Below, in pieces: positions 23 through 55,288 of a DNA stretch of 64,000 bases. Position 1 is the first letter of the stretch. Each line of letters begins with the position of its first letter. The stretch comes from a virus. Where the stretch lies: the UHGV virus genome UHGV-0049167; one strand, given 5' to 3'. The notes beneath the pieces are model-generated. The model saw only the letters and a list, made by a program, of their open reading frames with translations, was not told the origin of the DNA and made no database searches. The translations under genes were made by a program, and so were the position numbers.

Positions 23-1144
23 GTGATAAGCCCCAAGACAATAAGCCTTTTCAAGAAAAAGGCGGCATCATTCATACAATATGATTTAACAGATACAGAT
101 ATGAGCAATCCGGAAAAGATAGAGCATGTGCTGCGTACGTTCGGCATACTCACGCAGGTGGCTCACGAGATGCAGGGTCATTCCTCGTGCACCTATCTGC
201 TTGAGGCGAGCGCGGGAGTGAAAATCAGCCAGATTTCGAAATACAGGCTCGATATAGCCAATGCCCTCAATGTGCCATCAGTGAGAATAGGTGACAACCT
301 CGTGGTTTACGAGGGCAAGTCATACCTTCCCGTCGAGGCTCCGGTAAAGGGCGGAGGCATCCTGTATTGGGACGTGAAATACCTTGAGGACAAGAACCGC
401 ATACCTCTCGGTGTGGACAATTTCGGAAATGTGATATGTTGGGACATCCACAATCATGCCACACCGCACATGCTTATATGCGGAGCCACAGGCAGCGGAA
501 AATCCGTAAGTATAATAAGTACTGTCGAATACGCCCTTGAGGCAGGCATTAATGACATAACGATATTCGACCCGAAATACGAGTTCTGCGGTTACGCCTC
601 GCGTCCCGGAGTCAAGGTCTACAATGAGATAGAGGACATAGAGGAGCAGATGCGGCTATGCGTCGAAGACATGCAGAGCCGTGCAAGAACCGGAGTCCAT
701 CAGCTTAAACTGATAGTGTTCGACGAGTTCGCGGATGCGGTGGCGTCGGCAAAGTCAGGTGCGGAGCTTGATATAAAGGAAATGGTCGAGGTCGGACAGC
801 GGAAGGGTGATTTCGGCATGCTTGTCCCAAAAATGGAACTGAGGACGACAGGAAGGCTCAAATCGCTCGAGGAGAACCTGAAAATGCTGTTGCAGAAGGG
901 ACGCTCGCTCGGCTTCCGCATAATCGCCGCGACGCAGCGTGCGTCCGCCAATGTCATAACAGGTGACGCGAAGGTTAACTTCCCTGTGCTTGTATGCTTC
1001 CGCGTGCCTAAAGAGATAGACTCGAAGGTCGTCCTTGACGAGCCTGGGGCGGAAACCCTTAATGGCAAGGGCGACGGACTGATAAAAAGTCCCGAATACT
1101 TCGGACTCGTACGTTTCCAAGGATTTTATAAACCAAACCCATAA
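23..1144 (+). CDS. FtsK/SpoIIIE-like P-loop ATPase; possibly 5'-truncated by the window edge
   Basis: 373-aa ORF starting at GTG with no in-frame stop upstream before position 1; Walker A GATGSGKS and Walker B-like LIVFDEF. Confidence 0.6.
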   Translation: MISPKTISLFKKKAASFIQYDLTDTDMSNPEKIEHVLRTFGILTQVAHEMQGHSSCTYLLEASAGVKISQISKYRLDIANALNVPSVRIGDNLVVYEGKSYLPVEAPVKGGGILYWDVKYLEDKNRIPLGVDNFGNVICWDIHNHATPHMLICGATGSGKSVSIISTVEYALEAGINDITIFDPKYEFCGYASRPGVKVYNEIEDIEEQMRLCVEDMQSRARTGVHQLKLIVFDEFADAVASAKSGAELDIKEMVEVGQRKGDFGMLVPKMELRTTGRLKSLEENLKMLLQKGRSLGFRIIAATQRASANVITGDAKVNFPVLVCFRVPKEIDSKVVLDEPGAETLNGKGDGLIKSPEYFGLVRFQGFYKPNP

Positions 1145-1146
1145 GT

Positions 1147-1557
1147 ATGGCAAACACGATAACAGGACGTGTCAGCAAGATAACGTCCGAACAGCAGATA
1201 ACGGGCATGTCGGGCAAGACGTTCACCAAGCGCACGCTTGTCCTCGACGCCTCGCGCTATGACCAGTATACAGGCGAGAAGAAATTCGACAACTATCCGA
1301 GTGTAGAGTTTTCAGGAGAGCTTATGAAAACCCTTGACAGCTTTAAGGAAGGCGATATGGTCGTGGTGTCGTTCGACATCAACGGCAGGGAGGTGAATGA
1401 CGCGCAGACCGGAGATGGCAGGTATTTCAACTCGATACGCGGCTACAGGATAGAGCGTTACGGGAACAGTGAGCGCACACAGGCACAGAGTACAGACAAC
1501 GACCCGCAGGATTCCCTGCATGAGCAAGGGGATGCGGAAGGACAATTACCATTTTAA
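1147..1557 (+). CDS. DUF3127-like small protein (OB-fold-like, conserved in Bacteroidales phages)
   Basis: 136 aa; pattern GMSGKTFTKRTLVLD...YPSVEF...VSFDINGRE...YFNSIRGYRIE resembles DUF3127 family as recalled from memory. Confidence 0.5.
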   Translation: MANTITGRVSKITSEQQITGMSGKTFTKRTLVLDASRYDQYTGEKKFDNYPSVEFSGELMKTLDSFKEGDMVVVSFDINGREVNDAQTGDGRYFNSIRGYRIERYGNSERTQAQSTDNDPQDSLHEQGDAEGQLPF

Positions 1558-2247: not shown

Positions 2248-2630
2248 AACGCCTATACACCGCGCCACGCACATACCGACCGCAGCATCACCACGAGGAC
2301 AGCTTGCAGAAGGCGTGCGTGGCGTGGTTCGACTACACGCACAAGGACATAAGCCTTTACTTGCACCACTCGCCCAACGGCGGCTTCCACAACGCGAGCG
2401 AGGCGGCGAAATTCAAGGCGATGGGCGTGCGTGCCGGTTTCCCTGACCTCGTGCTGCTCGTGCCGAGAGGAAAATGTCCGTTCCTTGCCATAGAATTGAA
2501 ATACGGCAGGAACAGACAGTCAGAGCGGCAGAAAGCCTACCAGGAGGCTCTGGAGGCAATCGGAGCGAGGTACGTGGTAGTGAGGACTCTGATAGAGTTC
2601 CGTAAAACAGTTGAGGACTATTTGGAATGA
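2229..2630 (+). CDS. VRR-NUC domain nuclease
   Basis: 133 aa; FPDLVLLVP...FLAIELKYGRN matches the PD-(D/E)xK core of VRR-NUC proteins. Confidence 0.6.
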   Translation: MRFDELKRLYTAPRTYRPQHHHEDSLQKACVAWFDYTHKDISLYLHHSPNGGFHNASEAAKFKAMGVRAGFPDLVLLVPRGKCPFLAIELKYGRNRQSERQKAYQEALEAIGARYVVVRTLIEFRKTVEDYLE

Positions 2631-2631
2631 C

Positions 2632-3462
2632 ATGATGGACGAAGGATATATAACACTGAGCCGTCGTTTCTTCGCAAGCGAGATATGGAGGACGACCCGG
2701 GCTTTTAACGAGAGCGAAGCGTGGCTCGACTTGATACAGTCGGCACGATTTGAGCCATCGGCGATAACATCGCGCATCGGGTGCTACGAAGTTACGTGGA
2801 CGAGGGGACAATATCCTGCATCCGTAAAGTTCCTCACAAAGAAATGGGGACGTTCCGAAAGGTGGGTGAAATCGTTTCTCGGAAAACTTCGCCGCGCCAA
2901 GATGATAACCACTGACGCGGCGCAGGGGACTACCGTCATAACGCTTGTAAATTTTGACAGATATAACCCTATGCCAAGCCTGCCAGAAGAGGGCGGGCGA
3001 CCTAACCCTGTGACCCAACTAAGCGAACTGACAGACAGTGGGTTACGTGGAATTGCGTCTAACCCCCTGACCCAACCCCGTCCAACCCCCGACCTACAAA
3101 AAAAAGAAAGATATAATATGCTTGAAGATAATAATGCGCGTATGCGTGTGCGCGAGGAAAGCTACGCCGATGAAGTCATGTCGTCACCCCAATGGATTGA
3201 GGACATGCAAAGGCTCTACAGAATACCTCCCGACATGCTCCGAGCCAAGTGCGACGAGTTCATGCTCGACTGCCGGTGCTATGGGCATACACACACAGAC
3301 GCCGACGACTTCAAGCGGCATTTCAACAACTGGCTGCGCGGCAGGCGTGACAGGGATTTAAAAAAACAGAAAGATGCAGACAATACCAAAGGACATGAAG
3401 ATAGACGTCGCGGCTATGAAATCGCGGCTTCTGATGAGAAGGACTACTGCTCCACGTTTTAA
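2632..3462 (+). CDS. putative replication initiation / replisome organizer protein
   Basis: ORF table 2611 is a TTG; first ATG at 2632 directly follows the upstream stop; sits immediately upstream of the DnaC-like loader; no diagnostic motif seen. Confidence 0.35.
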   Translation: MMDEGYITLSRRFFASEIWRTTRAFNESEAWLDLIQSARFEPSAITSRIGCYEVTWTRGQYPASVKFLTKKWGRSERWVKSFLGKLRRAKMITTDAAQGTTVITLVNFDRYNPMPSLPEEGGRPNPVTQLSELTDSGLRGIASNPLTQPRPTPDLQKKERYNMLEDNNARMRVREESYADEVMSSPQWIEDMQRLYRIPPDMLRAKCDEFMLDCRCYGHTHTDADDFKRHFNNWLRGRRDRDLKKQKDADNTKGHEDRRRGYEIAASDEKDYCSTF

Positions 3463-4024
3463 GCTGGACGTCACCACGCGGCAGGCATATGACCTGATTA
3501 CGGCGGCGTATTCAGCCGAAGTGGAGGCACGTAACGGAAAGTTCATCCTTGATGAGCATACAAAAACGCACGTGTGGTATGCGGCTAAGGCTCTGACCAC
3601 GACGGACAAGTTCGGCATAGCCTTCTGCGGCGAGGTGGGCAACGGCAAGACGACGCTAATGTCGGCAATATGCAACCTCACGTCATACCTCATGGGCAAT
3701 GAGGACAGACACTTCAGGAAAATCAAGGCGACAGATATTGCGACGGTTTATGCAAACCGCAGTGATTTCAAGATTCTGTGCAACGATGAGTTCCTTGCCA
3801 TTGATGACATCGGCTGCGAACCGGCGGAAGTTATGTCGTACGGAAACATACTCACACCAACGGTGGAATTGCTTATGGCACGCTACGACATGCAGCTGTA
3901 CACGATGTTCACCACCAACATCATGCCGAAGAAGATAAAGGACCGTTACGGAGAACGGATAGCGGACAGGCTGCGTGAGATGATGTATATTATACCGTTT
4001 ACAAATCAGACGTACCGCCTATGA
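3374..4024 (+). CDS. DnaC/IstB-like AAA+ ATPase (helicase loader)
   Basis: Walker A GEVGNGKTT, Walker B LAIDDIG; start uncertain (89-nt overlap with upstream ORF, internal ATGs at 3395/3416/3434). Confidence 0.6.
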   Translation: MQTIPKDMKIDVAAMKSRLLMRRTTAPRFKLDVTTRQAYDLITAAYSAEVEARNGKFILDEHTKTHVWYAAKALTTTDKFGIAFCGEVGNGKTTLMSAICNLTSYLMGNEDRHFRKIKATDIATVYANRSDFKILCNDEFLAIDDIGCEPAEVMSYGNILTPTVELLMARYDMQLYTMFTTNIMPKKIKDRYGERIADRLREMMYIIPFTNQTYRL

Positions 4025-4325: not shown

Positions 4326-4838
4326 ATGGAAGAGATTTGGAAAGAAATTCCAGGTTACGAAGGACTTTATCAAGTCAGCAATCTTGGAAATGTACAAAGA
4401 ATAAACGCATCCAATAGGCCATATCTTAATGGGCTTTTAAAACAATGGACAACGAAGGATGGTTATAAAATGGTTTCATTAAGAAATGCAAAAGGGAAAC
4501 GGAAAGGTTTTCTTGTGCATCGGCTTGTGGCTATTTCTTTTGTCAATGGATATAATATTGATTTACAAGTTAATCATAAAAATGAAATAAAATCAGATAA
4601 TCGCGCGGATAATTTAGAATGGGTTACTTGCATGGAAAATCTAAATTATGGCACACGAATACCCCGTGTAGCATTGTCATTAGGCAAGCCTGTTGTTTCT
4701 GTTAAAAATTTGATTTTTGAAAAATATCCAAGCATTAAAGAAGCATCGAGAGTAACAGGCGTGTCGTCTGCTAATATACTTGCTGTACTGAAAGGCAAAC
4801 GCAAACACGCAGGCGGATATGTTTGGTATTACTTGTAG
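4326..4838 (+). CDS. HNH homing endonuclease (NUMOD4 + HNH_3-like)
   Basis: N-terminal EIPGYEGLYQVSNLGNV (NUMOD4-type) followed by HRLVA...VNHKN...NLEW (HNH core); AT-rich gene within a GC-richer module. Confidence 0.7.
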   Translation: MEEIWKEIPGYEGLYQVSNLGNVQRINASNRPYLNGLLKQWTTKDGYKMVSLRNAKGKRKGFLVHRLVAISFVNGYNIDLQVNHKNEIKSDNRADNLEWVTCMENLNYGTRIPRVALSLGKPVVSVKNLIFEKYPSIKEASRVTGVSSANILAVLKGKRKHAGGYVWYYL

Positions 4839-9208: not shown

Positions 9209-9770
9209 CATACATTTACGCCTTGAAAAAAGACTCAAAAAAGAAAAGGTGTGGAACAGATACTACACAGAGAAATGCGAGTGGCAAAATTGCGGAATAA
9301 TCCCTTTTGACAGAACTTGGGGTGACCGGATATATGGTATGTTCGCTGTTTTGGCAAACGTGCGCAATCGATGGAATATCGAGCATATTCCCATACGTGG
9401 ATTGCCGGATGACATCTGCCCTGCCACCTTGGAATGTTATGGTAAACCAATAAAGGATGAAATCAAAGACGCTTATGAAGACGAGAACTTTTATCTTACT
9501 TCCAAAGCAGAAGATTGGGTGAAAGACGGATTGAGCAGATATTACGTAGTGAGAGGGCGCAAGTTCTGCTCTTGCCCAGATTTCCATAGCGCGAACTGGT
9601 GTACGACGCGTGAAATGGAAGATTGCATAAACAAGGTGTTCAAAGACGAAAAAGGAAACTTCAAACCGGAGGCAGAGCCTTATGAATGGCTTGCCCTGCT
9701 CGGCGCGATGAAAGGTTATGAAAGCACCGGCGAATATGAGTGCAGGGCTATTTTTTTGTTTGACAATTAA
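9198..9770 (+). CDS. hypothetical protein
   Basis: 190-aa ORF. Confidence 0.45.
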   Translation: MGCDIHLRLEKRLKKEKVWNRYYTEKCEWQNCGIIPFDRTWGDRIYGMFAVLANVRNRWNIEHIPIRGLPDDICPATLECYGKPIKDEIKDAYEDENFYLTSKAEDWVKDGLSRYYVVRGRKFCSCPDFHSANWCTTREMEDCINKVFKDEKGNFKPEAEPYEWLALLGAMKGYESTGEYECRAIFLFDN

Positions 9771-9783
9771 AAGATTACGTAAA

Positions 9784-10008
9784 ATGGAACAAGACAACGT
9801 TATCGCAAAGGAATGCTCGCACTGCCACCGCACGTTGCCCGTCACGGAGTTCTACAAGAAGAAAGGCACGTCCGACGGTCTGCAATACTACTGCAAGCAG
9901 TGTCAAATTGAGTTTAACAACGCCTACAAATGCAAGAAGAAGGCTTTCGGGGGGGGGGAATCCCGAACTCTCACGCTTCACGCCACGTCAGCTTATGGAG
10001 GAACTTAA
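9784..10008 (+). CDS. zinc-ribbon-like protein interrupted at a G10 tract; the shifted frame stays open to 10069
   Basis: ATG at 9784 (MEQDNVIAKECSHCHR...YYCKQCQ); after the G10 run at 9949..9958 the other frame reads NPELSRFTPRQLMEELKARGYTGELKYVQTINLERL and stops at 10067..10069, overlapping the next ATG. Confidence 0.45.
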   Translation: MEQDNVIAKECSHCHRTLPVTEFYKKKGTSDGLQYYCKQCQIEFNNAYKCKKKAFGGGESRTLTLHATSAYGGT

Positions 10009-10065
10009 AGCCCGCGGCTATACTGGAGAACTGAAATATGTACAAACAATAAATCTTGAAAGATT

Positions 10066-11022
10066 ATGACACAGACCGGCATAATCGTCCTTCCGCATCA
10101 AATCAAAATGAAAGCGTGTGAAATACAACTCGACTACGACACCGTAATGTCAAAGGTAAGCCGCCCGCTTGCAAGGAAGCTGGTACACTCCGTGGAGCTT
10201 TTGCGGAAGTCGGAGAAAATGGCGTTGCGCCTCGACCCCGAAAACGGCTTTTACCTTGCGTTCAGCGGCGGCAAGGACAGCCAATGCCTCTACCATGTCG
10301 CAAAGCTGGCCGGTGTCCGCTTCAAGGCTCACATGAACCTTACGAGCATAGACCCGCCCGAAGTCATCCGCTTCGTCAAGACGCAATACCCCGATGTGGA
10401 GCTAATCAAACCACGGATGAGCATTTACGAAATGGCTAAGAAAAAGCACATCTTGCCTACAAGGATTTTGCGCTGGTGTTGCGCCGAGTTCAAGGAAACG
10501 TCAGGCGTTGGCAAAATAACACTTGTCGGTGTGAGAAAAGAAGAAAGCGCACGGCGAGCCAAACGTGAGGAAATATCCACAGAGATAAAGGGCAAGCGCA
10601 CTGAGGAAACCTTTGACCAATGGAGCGAACATGAGGAGAGCATGGTTGCGTGTGTCGGCGGTAAGGACAAAATCCTTGTATCGCCCATAATCTATTGGAC
10701 GGAGCGCGACGTGTGGGAGTTCCTTAACGTGAACGGCATACCACACTGCGAACTCTACGACGAGGGTTATACACGCATTGGCTGCATCTGTTGCCCTATG
10801 TCGCAACCATGGCAAAAAGCCAAAGAGATTAAACGTTGGCCGCACGTCAAACGCAATTGGATAAAGACAATCCAATGGCTGATAGACAACGGATATATCG
10901 ACCACAATTTCAACGACGCTGAAACAGGCTTTAGGTGGTGGATAAGCGGCAAGGGCTACAAGCAGTTCTACGCCGACGAGTTCCTGCAACAGAAAATTGA
11001 ATTTAAAGACAAAGACCAATGA
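10066..11022 (+). CDS. PAPS reductase-like PP-loop ATP pyrophosphatase family protein
   Basis: 318 aa; PP-loop motif LAFSGGKDSQ near N-terminus; C-terminal Cys cluster GCICCP. Confidence 0.65.
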   Translation: MTQTGIIVLPHQIKMKACEIQLDYDTVMSKVSRPLARKLVHSVELLRKSEKMALRLDPENGFYLAFSGGKDSQCLYHVAKLAGVRFKAHMNLTSIDPPEVIRFVKTQYPDVELIKPRMSIYEMAKKKHILPTRILRWCCAEFKETSGVGKITLVGVRKEESARRAKREEISTEIKGKRTEETFDQWSEHEESMVACVGGKDKILVSPIIYWTERDVWEFLNVNGIPHCELYDEGYTRIGCICCPMSQPWQKAKEIKRWPHVKRNWIKTIQWLIDNGYIDHNFNDAETGFRWWISGKGYKQFYADEFLQQKIEFKDKDQ

Positions 11023-11183
11023 AAGCGAGACATTGCGGCGAGTGCCGCCACTTCAAGAACGAGGACATCAACGGCGACGGCTGGTGCGGGAAGTACGACG
11101 TGGGCAGAAGATGTGGCAATGAGTGTTTGGCAAAGGAAAACAAAGGAAATACAAGGAAAATTTCCTCTAAAATCACAAGATAA
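11019..11183 (+). CDS. small Cys-rich protein (not in ORF track, under 60 aa)
   Basis: ATG at 11019 overlapping upstream stop (ATGA); 54 codons MKARHCGECRHFKNEDINGDGWCGKYD... Confidence 0.3.
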   Translation: MKARHCGECRHFKNEDINGDGWCGKYDVGRRCGNECLAKENKGNTRKISSKITR

Positions 11184-12708: not shown

Positions 12709-13764
12709 ATGAATTTTGCCAAATTTTACGATATAAGTGATTGGGTAGAAAAGCCCTACATCAACACAAAAGGTACCAGGAACAAATGTATTGTCATAGA
12801 CCCAGATAGTGGTATTGAATATTATTTCAAAACCTCTATCCACAAAGGTGCTATGGACTACAAGACTGAGTTCTGGTCAGAAATCATAGCTTCCAAAGTT
12901 GGGCAATATCTGAATTTCAATGTGCTGGATTATAACATAGCCAAACATAAGGATGAAGTCGGTTGCCTCTCTATGTCTATGATAAAAGACGGTGAATGCC
13001 TTACGGAGGGTATAAGTCTACTGACAGGATTCGACAATACTTATCGACCGTCAGACAAAGATTCATATTCACAATACACTTTCCATTTCATTGAAGAGGC
13101 CATAAGCAGTTTCGGATTGTCAAAGAACATTGACGATGTTATCAGGACCATTATCTTTGACTCTATAATAGGGAATAGTGACAGGCATCAAGAAAACTGG
13201 GGGTTCATCACGCCTTTTCAAGAAAAAACATTAACAAGGGAGGAGGCAAAAAGTTTTCTTGGAAGATTGAAAGAGCGCATCAAGAAGATACAGGATTCAT
13301 CGCGTGGCAACAACGGAAACGTTCCTTTAGACGTCCACGTCAAGATACGGATTTTGCAAATTGTCGGTAAATACGCTCCGATATATGACAGTGGATGCTG
13401 TCTCGCACGTGAAAAAAACGAAGGAGCCGTAAGGCAAATGCTTAATGACAAAATAATGTTCGACAGTTTTGTCAACCGTGGGCAGTCTGAAATACGTTGG
13501 GACGAAAGTGGGAGAAAGCTAAACCATTTCGAGTTGATAAAGCGCATAAAAGAAAAATATTACGAAGTCGTTACCGATACAATCAACCAAGTCATCGCCG
13601 TTTATGATGAAAATAAGATACATGACATTGTATTTAACATAGACAAGCGCCTTCCTGACGTACTGAAAGCTGACGAACGTTGGGCTTTGTCTGATGACAG
13701 GAAAGAATTGATATGTAGATTGATTGACGAACGTTTTAACAGACTAAAAAACATTATATTATGA
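12709..13764 (+). CDS. HipA-like Ser/Thr kinase family protein
   Basis: 351 aa; catalytic-loop-like IIGNSDRHQENWGF and downstream APIYDSGCCL fit the HipA C-terminal kinase signature; AT-rich gene. Confidence 0.55.
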   Translation: MNFAKFYDISDWVEKPYINTKGTRNKCIVIDPDSGIEYYFKTSIHKGAMDYKTEFWSEIIASKVGQYLNFNVLDYNIAKHKDEVGCLSMSMIKDGECLTEGISLLTGFDNTYRPSDKDSYSQYTFHFIEEAISSFGLSKNIDDVIRTIIFDSIIGNSDRHQENWGFITPFQEKTLTREEAKSFLGRLKERIKKIQDSSRGNNGNVPLDVHVKIRILQIVGKYAPIYDSGCCLAREKNEGAVRQMLNDKIMFDSFVNRGQSEIRWDESGRKLNHFELIKRIKEKYYEVVTDTINQVIAVYDENKIHDIVFNIDKRLPDVLKADERWALSDDRKELICRLIDERFNRLKNIIL

Positions 13765-14432
13765 AAAGATATATAAGACAAATCTACTTGGTATGGAGAC
13801 GAGGTAGAAACGAAAGAAGAATAAAGGTCGGAAGAATTCTCCGTAATAGTACGGAGGGGGTACGGTTCATGTACATGTCAGAAGGAGTCAAGGAAGCAGT
13901 GGAAAAAGGATTCAATATGTATCCTGATTTTCCAGACCCAGGAAAAGTGTACCATAACAACGTGCTTGAAATATTTTCACAGAGGTTGAACAACACCGAA
14001 CGTTCAGATATACAAAAGTATTATGACTATTGGGAAATAAGCCCTGAGATGAAAGATGACAAATATTATGTGCTTGCCCAAACGCAAGGACTTCTGCCGA
14101 CAGACACATTCGAGTTTCTTGCAGAATATTATCCGGTAAAGGATTTGCGTTTTACCAGCGAAATTTGTGGATTGACAAAAATGCAGCTTCCTAACGGAAC
14201 TTTGAAAGAAGGTGATATGCTAAAATGGAAATTGGAGCCAAGTAATCCTTACGATAAATATGCCGTAAAGTTATATAAGGAGAATAAGGAATTAGGATAT
14301 GTTAAATTAATACACAGTAAGGTTTTCCATGATTCAAAATACAAAAAATTCGCTGTAAAGGTAAAAAGCGTAGAACAGAATGGACATATAAACAGGGTTT
14401 TTGTTTCCGTATCCACTATTAATGTCAGGTAA
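13761..14432 (+). CDS. HIRAN-domain protein
   Basis: 223 aa, ATGA-coupled to the kinase gene; C-terminal LEPSNPYDKYAVKLYKENKELGYV matches the HIRAN core motif. Confidence 0.5.
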   Translation: MKRYIRQIYLVWRRGRNERRIKVGRILRNSTEGVRFMYMSEGVKEAVEKGFNMYPDFPDPGKVYHNNVLEIFSQRLNNTERSDIQKYYDYWEISPEMKDDKYYVLAQTQGLLPTDTFEFLAEYYPVKDLRFTSEICGLTKMQLPNGTLKEGDMLKWKLEPSNPYDKYAVKLYKENKELGYVKLIHSKVFHDSKYKKFAVKVKSVEQNGHINRVFVSVSTINVR

Positions 14433-53368: not shown

Positions 53369-53797
53369 TCAGACTGGTTTGTTAGAAAGCTGGCTCATAC
53401 GCTCGTCAAGTACATCAAGGTAGCCTTGCATAATACCCTCCTGCTTAGAAAGCAGCTTCCTTTGGTACTCATCAGTAACCGTCTCCAAGAATTTCGGAGA
53501 CTCTATGAACGAACGTAGCTTAGTGAGCTTGTCATGCAGTTCCGTACGCTCGATATAAAGACGGTCAAGAAACGTGTCAGCGCGCTTGTACGCTTTGTCA
53601 AACGGTTCAGCAGGCGACCAGCTTTCATAACCGTCTTGATAGCGGACATGATAACCAGCGTTTGACTTCTCGTTTTCGTTAGGCACTCGGCCTGCTTGCA
53701 GCAATCCTTTCTCGTAAGCCTCGCCCATAGTCATAGGTTCGGCTTCAATCTGTTTTGTTCCGATGTACTTTTTCATAATTATTTGTTTTATATCCAA
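53369..53797 (-). CDS. hypothetical protein
   Basis: 142-aa ORF. Confidence 0.4.
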   Translation of the reverse strand: MDIKQIIMKKYIGTKQIEAEPMTMGEAYEKGLLQAGRVPNENEKSNAGYHVRYQDGYESWSPAEPFDKAYKRADTFLDRLYIERTELHDKLTKLRSFIESPKFLETVTDEYQRKLLSKQEGIMQGYLDVLDERMSQLSNKPV

Positions 53798-54357
53798 TGT
53801 ATAGTTGGTGTTCCATTAAATCCTTTTTCAAATACAAACCAAGCGTAGCATACAGCTCCGTTCCCGTACCTCTCAAAGTCGCCGTTCTTCGCGCAGCTCA
53901 CCCTCTTCGAGAACACCCATATCCTGCTCGGCGGCGTCCTCTCAAACAGCTTTCTGCGCTCCTGACCCTCTAAAAACGTCAGCTTCAGCAGCATGGCAAC
54001 CTTGCGGCCATCGCCGACACACTCAAGAGCCTTATCCACGAAACGCTGCGCGTATTTATACGGTGGATTGGTAACGATGTCGCCTTCCCATTCCTCCGCA
54101 CAAGAGAGAAAATCCATCCTCTCATTGCCAATCCTGTCTATTATGTCGCTCTTCCGCACCTCGTAACCGTGCTTTTCCAGCACTCCCGATATGTGTCCCA
54201 GCCCTACGCACGGCTCCCATATCATGCGGTCAAAGTCCTCCACCGCGAGCAATGCCTCGACCGCCTTCGGGTCTGTTACGTACAAGTCCTCCGGCTGGCG
54301 TTCTTCTTTTGTGTGGTTGCTCGCCCCCAAAGGGGCAAATACGCATTTGTCACTCAT
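53788..54357 (-). CDS. small DNA methyltransferase (NPPY-type, N6-adenine or N4-cytosine)
   Basis: 189 aa; SAM-binding-like EPCVGLGHI and catalytic DIVTNPPYK; no adjacent restriction endonuclease recognised. Confidence 0.65.
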
Positions 54358-54881
54358 GCACCTGCTGTATATGTTCCTGTTATTGGAGCCGTAGTGCTGT
54401 CTGAAAGATGGGCTGTGCTTGTTATCTCCGCCCCATTGATATTCAATTCGATAGATGTTATTTTTGCACCAGTTTCACCTTTCGCACCGGTTGCTCCCTG
54501 CGCGCCTGTGTCCCCTTTGTCTCCCTTTGCACCTTGCTCTCCGGCAGGACCTTGTGCGCCAACGGCACCTTTGGGAATTGAGAATTTTATTTTATACTTT
54601 GGATTTCCGCTTCCGTCGTTGCCATTTGCTACGACTTGGACTGCCGCACTTTCACCTGCTTCAAGCGTATTCACATCGCCAGTCTCAAAAACAGGCGTCT
54701 TGCCGTCGGCTCCTTTGGCTCCCGTAGGACCTTGCGCACCTGCATCACCTTTCATACCTTTAAAAAGCGATGCTTTCGCTTTATACGTCGTCTGCCCGTC
54801 AGACAACGGAATAACCTCGTTCCCTGAAAGTGAGCCTTTTTCAGTCAGCTCGCTTATTTTCTTTCCACCTTTACTTTCCAT
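54354..54881 (-). CDS. collagen-like (Gly-X-Y) repeat protein
   Basis: ORF table start 54917; ATG at 54881 preceded by AAGGAGG; runs of [17 protein letters not shown] and [36 protein letters not shown]. Confidence 0.5.
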
Positions 54882-54904
54882 TTTTACCTCCTTTTTTATT
54901 TTTA

Positions 54905-55288
54905 TTATTCCAAACACAATTCATAGCCGTCATCGGCCAACAGGCTGCTCCCGTCATCGGCTAAGACACGCAGGTCGTTGTCAATGGGAATGTCCTTAGC
55001 CTCGCCGCCAAGTTCCATGACCTTGCAAGCCGTCACCGGGCTTGAACTTTGTATGGTTACCTCCATACCGGCCACGCCTTCTATTCGTACTATCACCGAT
55101 TCATTCTCGTAATAGCCCTTTGGCAAGTAAACCGGGGCGGGGCGTAAGCCTCCAATGCTCTTGTAAACATACAGCCCACCTTTTCTTGAACGTACTATAT
55201 GTACGTCAATGGTATCCGCATCGGGGCTTAACGTACATTTGTACGCCCCTTCTCCTGTCCTTACAAATTCTGTTGTCGTCATTGCCAT
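54905..55288 (-). CDS. hypothetical protein
   Basis: 127-aa ORF. Confidence 0.4.

Follow-up and report, generated by a model that had tools for sequence, protein, structure and literature searches.

A stand-alone BrxP-type PAPS-domain protein in a phage genome: a predicted iron-sulfur PP-loop ATP pyrophosphatase with a possible accessory counter-defence role

The stretch of DNA analysed here (hereafter the window) comprises 64,000 nucleotides of the virus genome UHGV-0049167 and carries a gene whose product resembles phosphoadenosine phosphosulfate (PAPS) reductases, which is the subject of this report (Table 1). A preliminary description, prepared from the sequence alone, had listed this gene as an open reading frame (ORF) of 318 amino acids with a PP-loop (SGGKDS) and a cysteine-rich GCICCP motif, and the reading frame and both motifs are present in the sequence where it had placed them. 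Because close homologues, one of them 97% identical, are nearly all 302 to 306 amino acids long (94 to 96% of the 318-residue query being covered), Met-15 at position 10108 is probably the real start, and the copy in a sister phage (locus L006) begins at the methionine equivalent to Met-15. With this start, the apparent ATGA coupling of the enzyme gene to the ORF upstream disappears. Residue numbers below are counted from Met-15, and adding 14 gives the numbering of the 318-residue ORF.

Table 1. Coordinates of the PAPS-reductase-like gene, its motifs and other features of the window; the last row refers to loci of relatives
Feature	Coordinates	Strand	Details and basis
PAPS-reductase-like protein, longest ORF	10066..11022	+	318 aa (stop included in coordinates); ORF list and sequence
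Probable true coding sequence of the same protein	10108..11022	+	304 aa, Met-15 start, MKACEIQ...; homologue lengths, sister phage L006
PP-loop SGGKDS (S53-S58), ATP alpha-beta pyrophosphatase signature	10264..10281	+	Sequence; invariant in 66 homologues; common to BrxP PAPS domain
Cys-Cys pair C124/C125 in RWCCAEFKE, first half of predicted [4Fe-4S] site	10477..10482	+	Invariant; 2goy alignment; invariant in BrxP
GCICCP; conserved CxxC (C226, C229), second half of predicted [4Fe-4S] site; C228 lineage-specific	10780..10797	+	Alignments
C-terminal helical extension, basic and aromatic-rich, without Cys, residues ~234-293	10807..10986	+	AlphaFold2 model
Small ORF, 54 aa, 5 Cys	11019..11183	+	ATG 11019..11021 overlaps TGA 11020..11022
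Zinc-ribbon gene, split by +1 frame change at G10 run (9949..9958)	9718..10069	+	PHROG; frame analysis
FtsK/SpoIIIE/HerA-like ATPase, opens replication module	23..1144	+	Pfam FtsK_SpoIIIE, FtsK_alpha; PHROG 1358
Single-stranded DNA-binding protein (SSB)	1147..1557		Replication module
DnaD-like loader	2611..3462		Replication module
DnaC-like loader	3374..4024		Replication module
HNH endonuclease	4326..4838		Replication module
HipA_C-like kinase-fold gene	12709..13764	+	Pfam 22.2 bits, below cutoff
HIRAN-domain gene	13761..14432	+	Pfam 29.9 bits, above cutoff
Very large ORF, 2720 aa	24780..32942	-	Structural part of genome
Very large ORF, 1915 aa	42474..48221	+	Structural part of genome
N6-adenine DNA methyltransferase-like, 189 aa	53788..54357	-	PHROG 799, E 1.8e-63; EPCVGLG, TNPPYK motifs
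ASCH/radical-SAM-like arrangement in relatives	L010 3070..3996; L016, L018, L019, L021 ~2506..3423; L017 3452..3982

The fold and family proposed in the preliminary description were borne out. The protein matched Pfam PF01507 (PAPS_reduct) at 77.1 bits against a gathering cutoff of 22.5 bits (E 2.2e-21, profile positions 4-173 of 175) and PHROG 424 at E 1.8e-38 (133.7 bits, residues 41-274), a family match that lies far above chance. A collection of 5.8 billion proteins yielded 5443 homologues at E <= 1e-5 and 3583 representatives (50% identity) at E <= 0.001. The protein has the Rossmann-like alpha/beta fold of the PAPS reductase / CysD / FAD synthase type, and its AlphaFold2 model reached a predicted local distance difference test score (pLDDT) of 92.3 and a predicted template modelling score of 0.89. 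Its structural neighbours include the [4Fe-4S] PP-loop tRNA thiolases TtuA and NcsA as well as LarE, TilS and QueC, and no solved structure was closer, so that the structure confirms the class and says nothing of the substrate. The protein belongs to a large and already flagged phage family (the "PAPS reductases" of PHROG 424 and PF01507, some of which adjoin N6/N4 methylases fused to ParB_N), to which the window adds one more member and not a new kind of system.

Conservation was assessed in an alignment of 66 diverse homologues that are 31-52% identical to the query, in which the residues S53-S58, P117, C124, C125, K129, G141, R143, S147, R150, Y217, R223, G225, C226, C229 and P230 are invariant. 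Among 150 representatives, almost every full-length protein combines SGGKDS with a CC pair and a CxxC that follows 80-125 residues on, while the middle cysteine of the CICC of the window protein is replaced in others by G, L, M, F and further residues (CIGC, CILC, CIMC). The "C-terminal Cys cluster" noted earlier is therefore present as GCICCP but is not an isolated feature, as it forms one half of a CC...GCxxC signature whose first half (WCC) had been overlooked and its middle cysteine is variable. In a profile search of PDB sequences, the CC pair aligned with Cys139/Cys140 (CCGIRK) and GCxxC with Cys228/Cys231 (IGCEPC) of the adenosine phosphosulfate (APS) reductase CysH of Pseudomonas aeruginosa (2goy), four residues that ligate its [4Fe-4S] cluster. 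Because the CC and CxxC of the phage protein align with these four cysteines, the ligands of the APS reductase subclass, CC...CxxC is predicted to be a four-cysteine [4Fe-4S] site. Beyond the CxxC, the protein continues for ~75 cysteine-free residues with four helices in the AlphaFold2 model (residues 234-243, 245-260, 271-280 and 284-293; pLDDT >90 over most of the stretch), an extension that stands where APS and PAPS reductases have their ECGLH catalytic tail and that partly aligns with the segment of BrxP beyond its CxxC.

Family assignment, which the preliminary description had left between PAPS reductase, DndC-like and other PP-loop enzymes, pointed to enzymes of DNA phosphorothioation as the nearest characterised relatives. 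The only PADLOC model matched by the window protein was BrxP of BREX type 4 (E 1.8e-17, model positions 134-352 of 779), and at E <= 0.1 it matched neither the SspD nor the DndC model of PADLOC. Its relatives gave weak matches to the latter two (one of them to SspD at 4.6e-07), and the scores of family members rank BrxP above SspD and SspD above DndC; membership in the DndC equivalog TIGR03183 was not supported (16.3 bits against a cutoff of 290.4 bits). An hhalign comparison of the phage-family profile with PAPS domains taken from 23 proteins of BrxP size gave a probability of 100% (E 2.1e-43; identity 31% across 196 columns), and the motifs FSGGKDS, P..RWCC..K, GVR.EES.R, PI..W and Y..G..R.GC..CP are common to both. 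By these comparisons, the closest characterised relative is the PAPS catalytic domain of BrxP. In Bacteroides salyersiae, BrxP and BrxC are required for DNA phosphorothioation, and they suffice for it in B. thetaiotaomicron; BREX type 4 is also enriched in gut genomes (PMC12914056).

Homology between the phage protein and the BrxP catalytic domain is of high confidence, PP-loop and CC...GCxxCP are found in both, and both occur in gut Bacteroidota settings. The two differ in architecture, since BrxP is a protein of ~750-850 amino acids that combines the PAPS domain with an alpha+beta domain, a Cys-rich ferredoxin-like region and DUF4007, whereas the 304 residues of the phage protein make up the PAPS part only. 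They also differ in setting, as the brxC, brxZ (PglZ) and brxL neighbours of BrxP were found neither around the gene in the window nor among the recurrent neighbours of relatives, and the phage gene is virus-encoded and lies outside a defence island. On sequence and context, the phage protein is thus a stand-alone BrxP-type catalytic domain that falls outside BrxP proper in both architecture and neighbourhood. DndC and SspD share with it the fold class, the PP-loop and the iron-sulfur cysteines, but neither the dndD (ABC/SMC-like ATPase) and dndE of the DndC operon nor the sspB/sspC neighbourhood of SspD accompanies the phage gene.

A scan of one genome per species revealed two groups of cellular relatives. 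Proteins of the first group are 32-55% identical to the window protein, come from Rikenella, Marinilabiliaceae, Lachnospiraceae and other gut or rumen taxa, and presumably represent prophage copies. Those of the second group are larger (530-940 amino acids) and more distant (23-31% identity), and SGGKDS and CC...GCxxC are also present in them; three of the larger ones were shown by PADLOC to be full-length BrxP from end to end (E 1e-221 to 1e-277). Further, a metagenome-assembled genome of Methanomicrobiales (L050 4164..6956, also L051) encodes a 931-residue fusion of a BrxP-type PAPS domain with a full SspA/DndA-type cysteine desulfurase, which ties the BrxP-type PAPS-domain clade directly to sulfur mobilisation. 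Recent capture from a host BrxP was considered and excluded, given the identity of 23-31% and a family that spans phages of Bacteroidales and Clostridia as well as archaeal viruses.

We surveyed the gene neighbourhood of the family in 31 loci dereplicated at 90% identity, which supplied 245 neighbouring proteins, and considered the 25 most frequent Pfam families of each position class. The 124 proteins one or two genes away from the enzyme include five C5 methylases, four N6/N4 methylases and three radical SAM proteins, and the 121 proteins three or four genes away include four N6/N4 and two C5 methylases. A DNA methylase lies within four genes of the enzyme in at least 9 of the 31 loci. DNA methylases of the N6/N4 type (in some cases carrying an N-terminal ParB domain) and of the C5 type recur beside the enzyme, as do an ASCH and zinc-ribbon protein and a radical-SAM-like protein. 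In several relatives, the ASCH and zinc-ribbon gene stands directly 5' of the PAPS-like gene and is itself preceded by a 305-residue radical-SAM-like protein with a CX3CX2C motif (Pfam Radical_SAM 27.2 bits against a cutoff of 29.5), while in L025 a radical-SAM-like protein (CSFGCDYC) follows directly 3' of the PAPS-like gene. This pair may be a recurrent modification cassette, and it is absent from the window. In ten longer family members (360-521 amino acids), Pfam found only PAPS_reduct and no fusions.

Phages encode other PAPS-domain proteins, and one of them bears on function. In a Vibrio podovirus, a fusion of an N-terminal PAPS domain with Dam (44E38.1 p0018), transferred to a sister phage along with one neighbouring gene, conferred resistance to the Dnd system of the host (preprint 10.1101/2021.05.05.442762). 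This protein, likewise encoded in an accessory region and linked to DNA methylation functions, is alone among phage examples in having a phenotype, namely escape from DndFGH restriction (Piel et al. 2022), and it differs from the window protein in its fusion to Dam. JSS1_004 was considered as a further Dnd-evading phage PAPS reductase and dismissed, as it is a kinase/shutoff protein and the correct reference is Piel et al. A 2026 survey places PAPS reductases in Aca-regulated operons and proposes anti-defence roles for them (PMC13551039), and a review of Thermus phages states that such proteins need investigation. The window protein also differs from the IbrA/IbrB-type pairs that involve ParB-like proteins, as no ParB-like gene was found among the window ORFs scanned around the enzyme; DUF3440 was not detected in the window protein, and the IbrA-like proteins of Flavobacterium phages matched at E ~0.03 only. 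Bacteroides phage BS-TP4, which infects B. salyersiae, encodes a 290-residue "PAPS reductase" (L108 3503..4375) after a DnaC-like loader and a DNA methyltransferase, and its host species is one with demonstrated BREX type 4 phosphorothioation (PMC12914056). We rejected this protein as an orthologue: its position in the module is the same, yet it falls into another subfamily that has one cysteine (RRFCT) where the window protein has CC, and extra Cys at the C-terminus. As a cultured phage, BS-TP4 would offer a convenient experimental system. Bacteroides phage BF8P1/BF10P1, likewise in culture, carries a 29%-identical member of the family proper.

We favour the explanation, at a probability of roughly 0.5, that the gene encodes a stand-alone phage iron-sulfur ATP pyrophosphatase that acts on nucleic acid as an accessory counter-defence function. 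Its parts differ in strength. Judged from motifs and profile comparisons, the protein very probably belongs to the iron-sulfur PP-loop ATP pyrophosphatases of the DndC/SspD/BrxP branch, while for a DNA substrate and a counter-defence role the balance is close to even and inclines, if anything, slightly to the negative. Such an enzyme would adenylate a substrate oxygen (ATP to AMP and PPi), and its cluster would serve a sulfur-transfer step, as has been proposed for DndC, SspD and BrxP and shown for TtuA-type thiolases, with sulfur presumably supplied by the IscS or SufS of the host. The substrate would be nucleic acid, most likely DNA, and the role would be accessory counter-defence against modification-sensing host systems (Dnd, Ssp and BREX type 4), which are present in gut Bacteroidota. 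Because the neighbouring genes supply neither a partner ATPase nor a subunit for DNA recognition, the enzyme would have to borrow host partners, work alone on another target or interfere with host complexes.

Several observations weigh against this explanation, and its main weakness is the absent ATPase or DNA-recognition partner, which leaves room for the rivals discussed below. Known phosphorothioation systems need an ATPase (DndD, SspC or BrxC) and a DNA-recognition subunit (DndE, SspB or DUF4007). Neither such an ATPase or recognition subunit nor a cysteine desulfurase lies next to the gene in the window, and the 25 Pfam families that are most frequent around the gene in the 31 loci include none of these partners. 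Methylases make up 9 of the 124 adjacent proteins and 6 of the 121 proteins three to four genes off (Fisher p = 0.60), so we rejected tight operonic coupling to DNA methylases, and the link is one of co-location in the same module as judged from near against far positions and not against a genome-wide background. Cluster binding is deduced by alignment only, the best NCBIfam matches are archaeal PRK13795-type proteins of unknown function, and the annotation of some archaeal-virus relatives as PUA fusions points to RNA. The protein 44E38.1 p0018 is distant, the window protein having no match in Vibrio phages at E <= 1e-5, and its anti-Dnd effect was not told apart from that of the fused Dam or the co-transferred gene (10.1101/2021.05.05.442762). 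Likewise, a Bacteroides isolate with a PAPS-reductase gene beside an ATPase but without dndD had no phosphorothioation (PMC12914056).

The preliminary description had gone further in suggesting that the phage modifies its own DNA, and this stays conjectural, as the partners that every known phosphorothioation system needs are missing on both sides of the gene in the window and do not figure among the genes that recur beside the enzyme in relatives. In its most specific form, the suggestion would make the protein a minimal BrxP-type iron-sulfur sulfurtransferase that marks the DNA of the phage with a phosphorothioate or another sulfur or adenylyl mark through the IscS/SufS of the host and perhaps a host phosphorothioation ATPase, which we consider doubtful. 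If it were true, gut Bacteroidales phages would pass as "self" to phosphorothioation-based defences (BREX type 4, Ssp and Dnd), the enzyme would provide the first phage-encoded DNA backbone modification, and thousands of "PAPS reductase" auxiliary metabolic genes of gut viromes would be counter-defence genes.

The name of the family suggests a quite different role, that of a genuine APS/PAPS reductase (CysH) carried as an auxiliary metabolic gene to boost assimilatory sulfate reduction of the host during infection. This is the usual annotation in virome studies, and the Pfam and PHROG names read "phosphoadenosine phosphosulfate reductase", JGI and NCBI name relatives in the same way, and bacterial APS reductases have this CC...CxxC motif. 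In APS and PAPS reductases, however, the C-terminal cysteine of the ECGLH type is catalytic and forms the thiosulfonate intermediate. The window protein has no cysteine after C229 (C243 in the 318-residue numbering) and none is conserved there in the 66-sequence alignment; where 2goy has its catalytic tail, the phage protein carries an unrelated helical extension, and where 2goy has a degenerate SFSGAED, it has the complete ATP-pyrophosphatase loop SGGKDS. All curated NCBIfam models of CysH, APS reductase, PAPS reductase and CysD remained at 22-47 bits against cutoffs of 154-554 bits (e.g., TIGR00434 47.3 against 165.1, NF002537 44 against 154, TIGR02055 40 against 235.3, and TIGR02057 40.1 against 254.2), and no other sulfate-assimilation genes were found nearby, either in the window flanks or among the recurrent neighbours across the 31 loci. 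Because the catalytic C-terminal cysteine is absent and the PP-loop is canonical, and with all curated models below cutoff, we discarded a sulfate-assimilation role, which is extremely improbable. A housekeeping sulfate enzyme without DNA-modification relatives, the outcome that the preliminary description had named as speaking against its own reading, is hence not what this analysis found.

A role on other substrates is less remote, and the enzyme could be an iron-sulfur PP-loop protein that modifies RNA (e.g., by tRNA thiolation), a nucleotide or a small molecule, and thereby tunes translation or metabolism during infection. The presence of TtuA, NcsA, LarE, TilS and QueC among the structural neighbours, the archaeal PRK13795-type matches, an archaeal virus homologue annotated as a fusion of PUA (an RNA-binding domain) with PAPS reductase, the ASCH-domain gene (often RNA-associated) directly 5' in several relatives, and the lack of a DNA-recognition partner in the window and among the recurrent neighbours would all fit such a role. 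It is nonetheless unlikely, since profile comparisons place the family much closer to BrxP (E 2e-43) than to TtuA-type proteins (E ~0.008 in the PDB profile search), four cysteines are kept in the phage family whereas TtuA-type thiolases have three Cys ligands, and the only experimental phenotype of a phage PAPS-domain gene is the evasion of a defence based on DNA modification. The protein might also be a non-catalytic decoy or poison, in which the isolated PAPS domain binds host BrxC, SspC or DndD, or a desulfurase, and so disables or misdirects phosphorothioation defence; it corresponds exactly to the BrxP catalytic domain minus the DUF4007 and ferredoxin-like parts, its gene is without partners of its own, and it lies in a variable accessory region. 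Against this, the PP-loop, the Arg and Ser of GVRxEESxxR and the four cysteines are invariant across the homologues from bacterial phages and prophages in the 31-52% identity range, the archaeal-virus relatives likewise keep the PP-loop and CC...GCxxC, and the family is deep, its distance from BrxP arguing against recent derivation from a host. Because an active enzyme would be expected to show just such invariance of catalytic residues, a decoy is disfavoured and appears improbable, and we retain an active iron-sulfur ATP pyrophosphatase in counter-defence as the preferred explanation.

The family is very common in phages and routinely reported as auxiliary genes of sulfur metabolism in gut virome studies, where it is still so labelled. 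For the clade of the window protein this annotation is wrong, because the catalytic cysteine is missing, the ATP-pyrophosphatase loop is complete and the closest relative is BrxP. Should the counter-defence role prove true, it would explain, in a directly testable way, how Bacteroidales phages cope with phosphorothioation-based immunity, which is enriched in the gut.

As for its surroundings, the enzyme gene was described as standing in the replication module, and it does come after the genes for the FtsK-like ATPase, SSB, the DnaD-like and DnaC-like loaders and the HNH endonuclease, lying downstream of the module within a run of small, poorly conserved genes. The FtsK-like ATPase is an unusual neighbour for an SSB and helicase loaders. 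The earlier reading was right on the fold and the non-housekeeping nature of the enzyme and wrong on the neighbouring genes it had enlisted in support, to which we now turn.

The ATGA overlap of the enzyme stop with the start of the small Cys-rich ORF was confirmed. A tblastn search of 27 related loci found this 54-residue ORF in one only, that of the sister phage L006, whose enzyme is 92% identical; the copy there is 87% identical and differs by 6 synonymous and 7 nonsynonymous codons. Because L006 keeps all five cysteines and shows these codon differences, the ORF is probably a real gene, for a small metal-binding protein. Its Pfam HIPIP match of 18.6 bits lies under the 22-bit cutoff, and across 45 family loci the ORF 3' of the enzyme differs almost everywhere and encodes Cys-free proteins, methylases, radical SAM proteins or helicases. 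A dedicated partner or iron-sulfur donor of the enzyme was therefore excluded, and the ORF, once taken as part of a modification system, is a lineage-specific neighbour.

The zinc-ribbon gene upstream fared similarly. The N-terminal part of its product matches Lar-like restriction alleviation proteins, endonuclease VII and HNH zinc ribbons in PHROG, and removing one G from the G10 run, or adding two, yields a single zinc-ribbon protein of 116 amino acids ending ...FTPRQLMEELKARGYTGELKYVQTINLERL. The homologue in the divergent phage L009 (4150..4520) has a G10 run at 4366 with an identical frame offset, which points to programmed slippage or phase variation and away from random error, the alternative being a homopolymer assembly artefact shared by both. 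Among the 27 loci, tblastn found homologues of the gene only in L009, where it lies 2 kb downstream of the enzyme, and weakly in L002, so it was rejected as a partner for lack of synteny, and this frameshift-prone gene is a lineage-specific feature and not the conserved supporting context it had been taken for.

The small methyltransferase cited in the preliminary description does resemble N6-adenine DNA methyltransferases, with a sub-threshold match to Pfam Dam, but it lies 43 kb off, flanked by a crAss001_48-like gene (53369..53797) and a collagen-repeat tail-fibre-like gene (54354..54917), and so forms no system with the enzyme. The structural part of the genome also contains two very large ORFs (Table 1).

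No cultured close relative of the phage was found by megablast. The host is likely a member of the Bacteroidales, because the capsid protein matches only that of Bacteroides phage C3_41T2LP, a B. uniformis phage (29%), and the closest cellular copies of the enzyme are those of Rikenella and Marinilabiliaceae. Finally, the HipA_C-like and HIRAN genes follow immediately after the accessory region, and a search of the 27 related loci found no relatives of either; the two genes overlap and match different halves of the 547-position PHROG 26212, as if they had been split from a fused protein.

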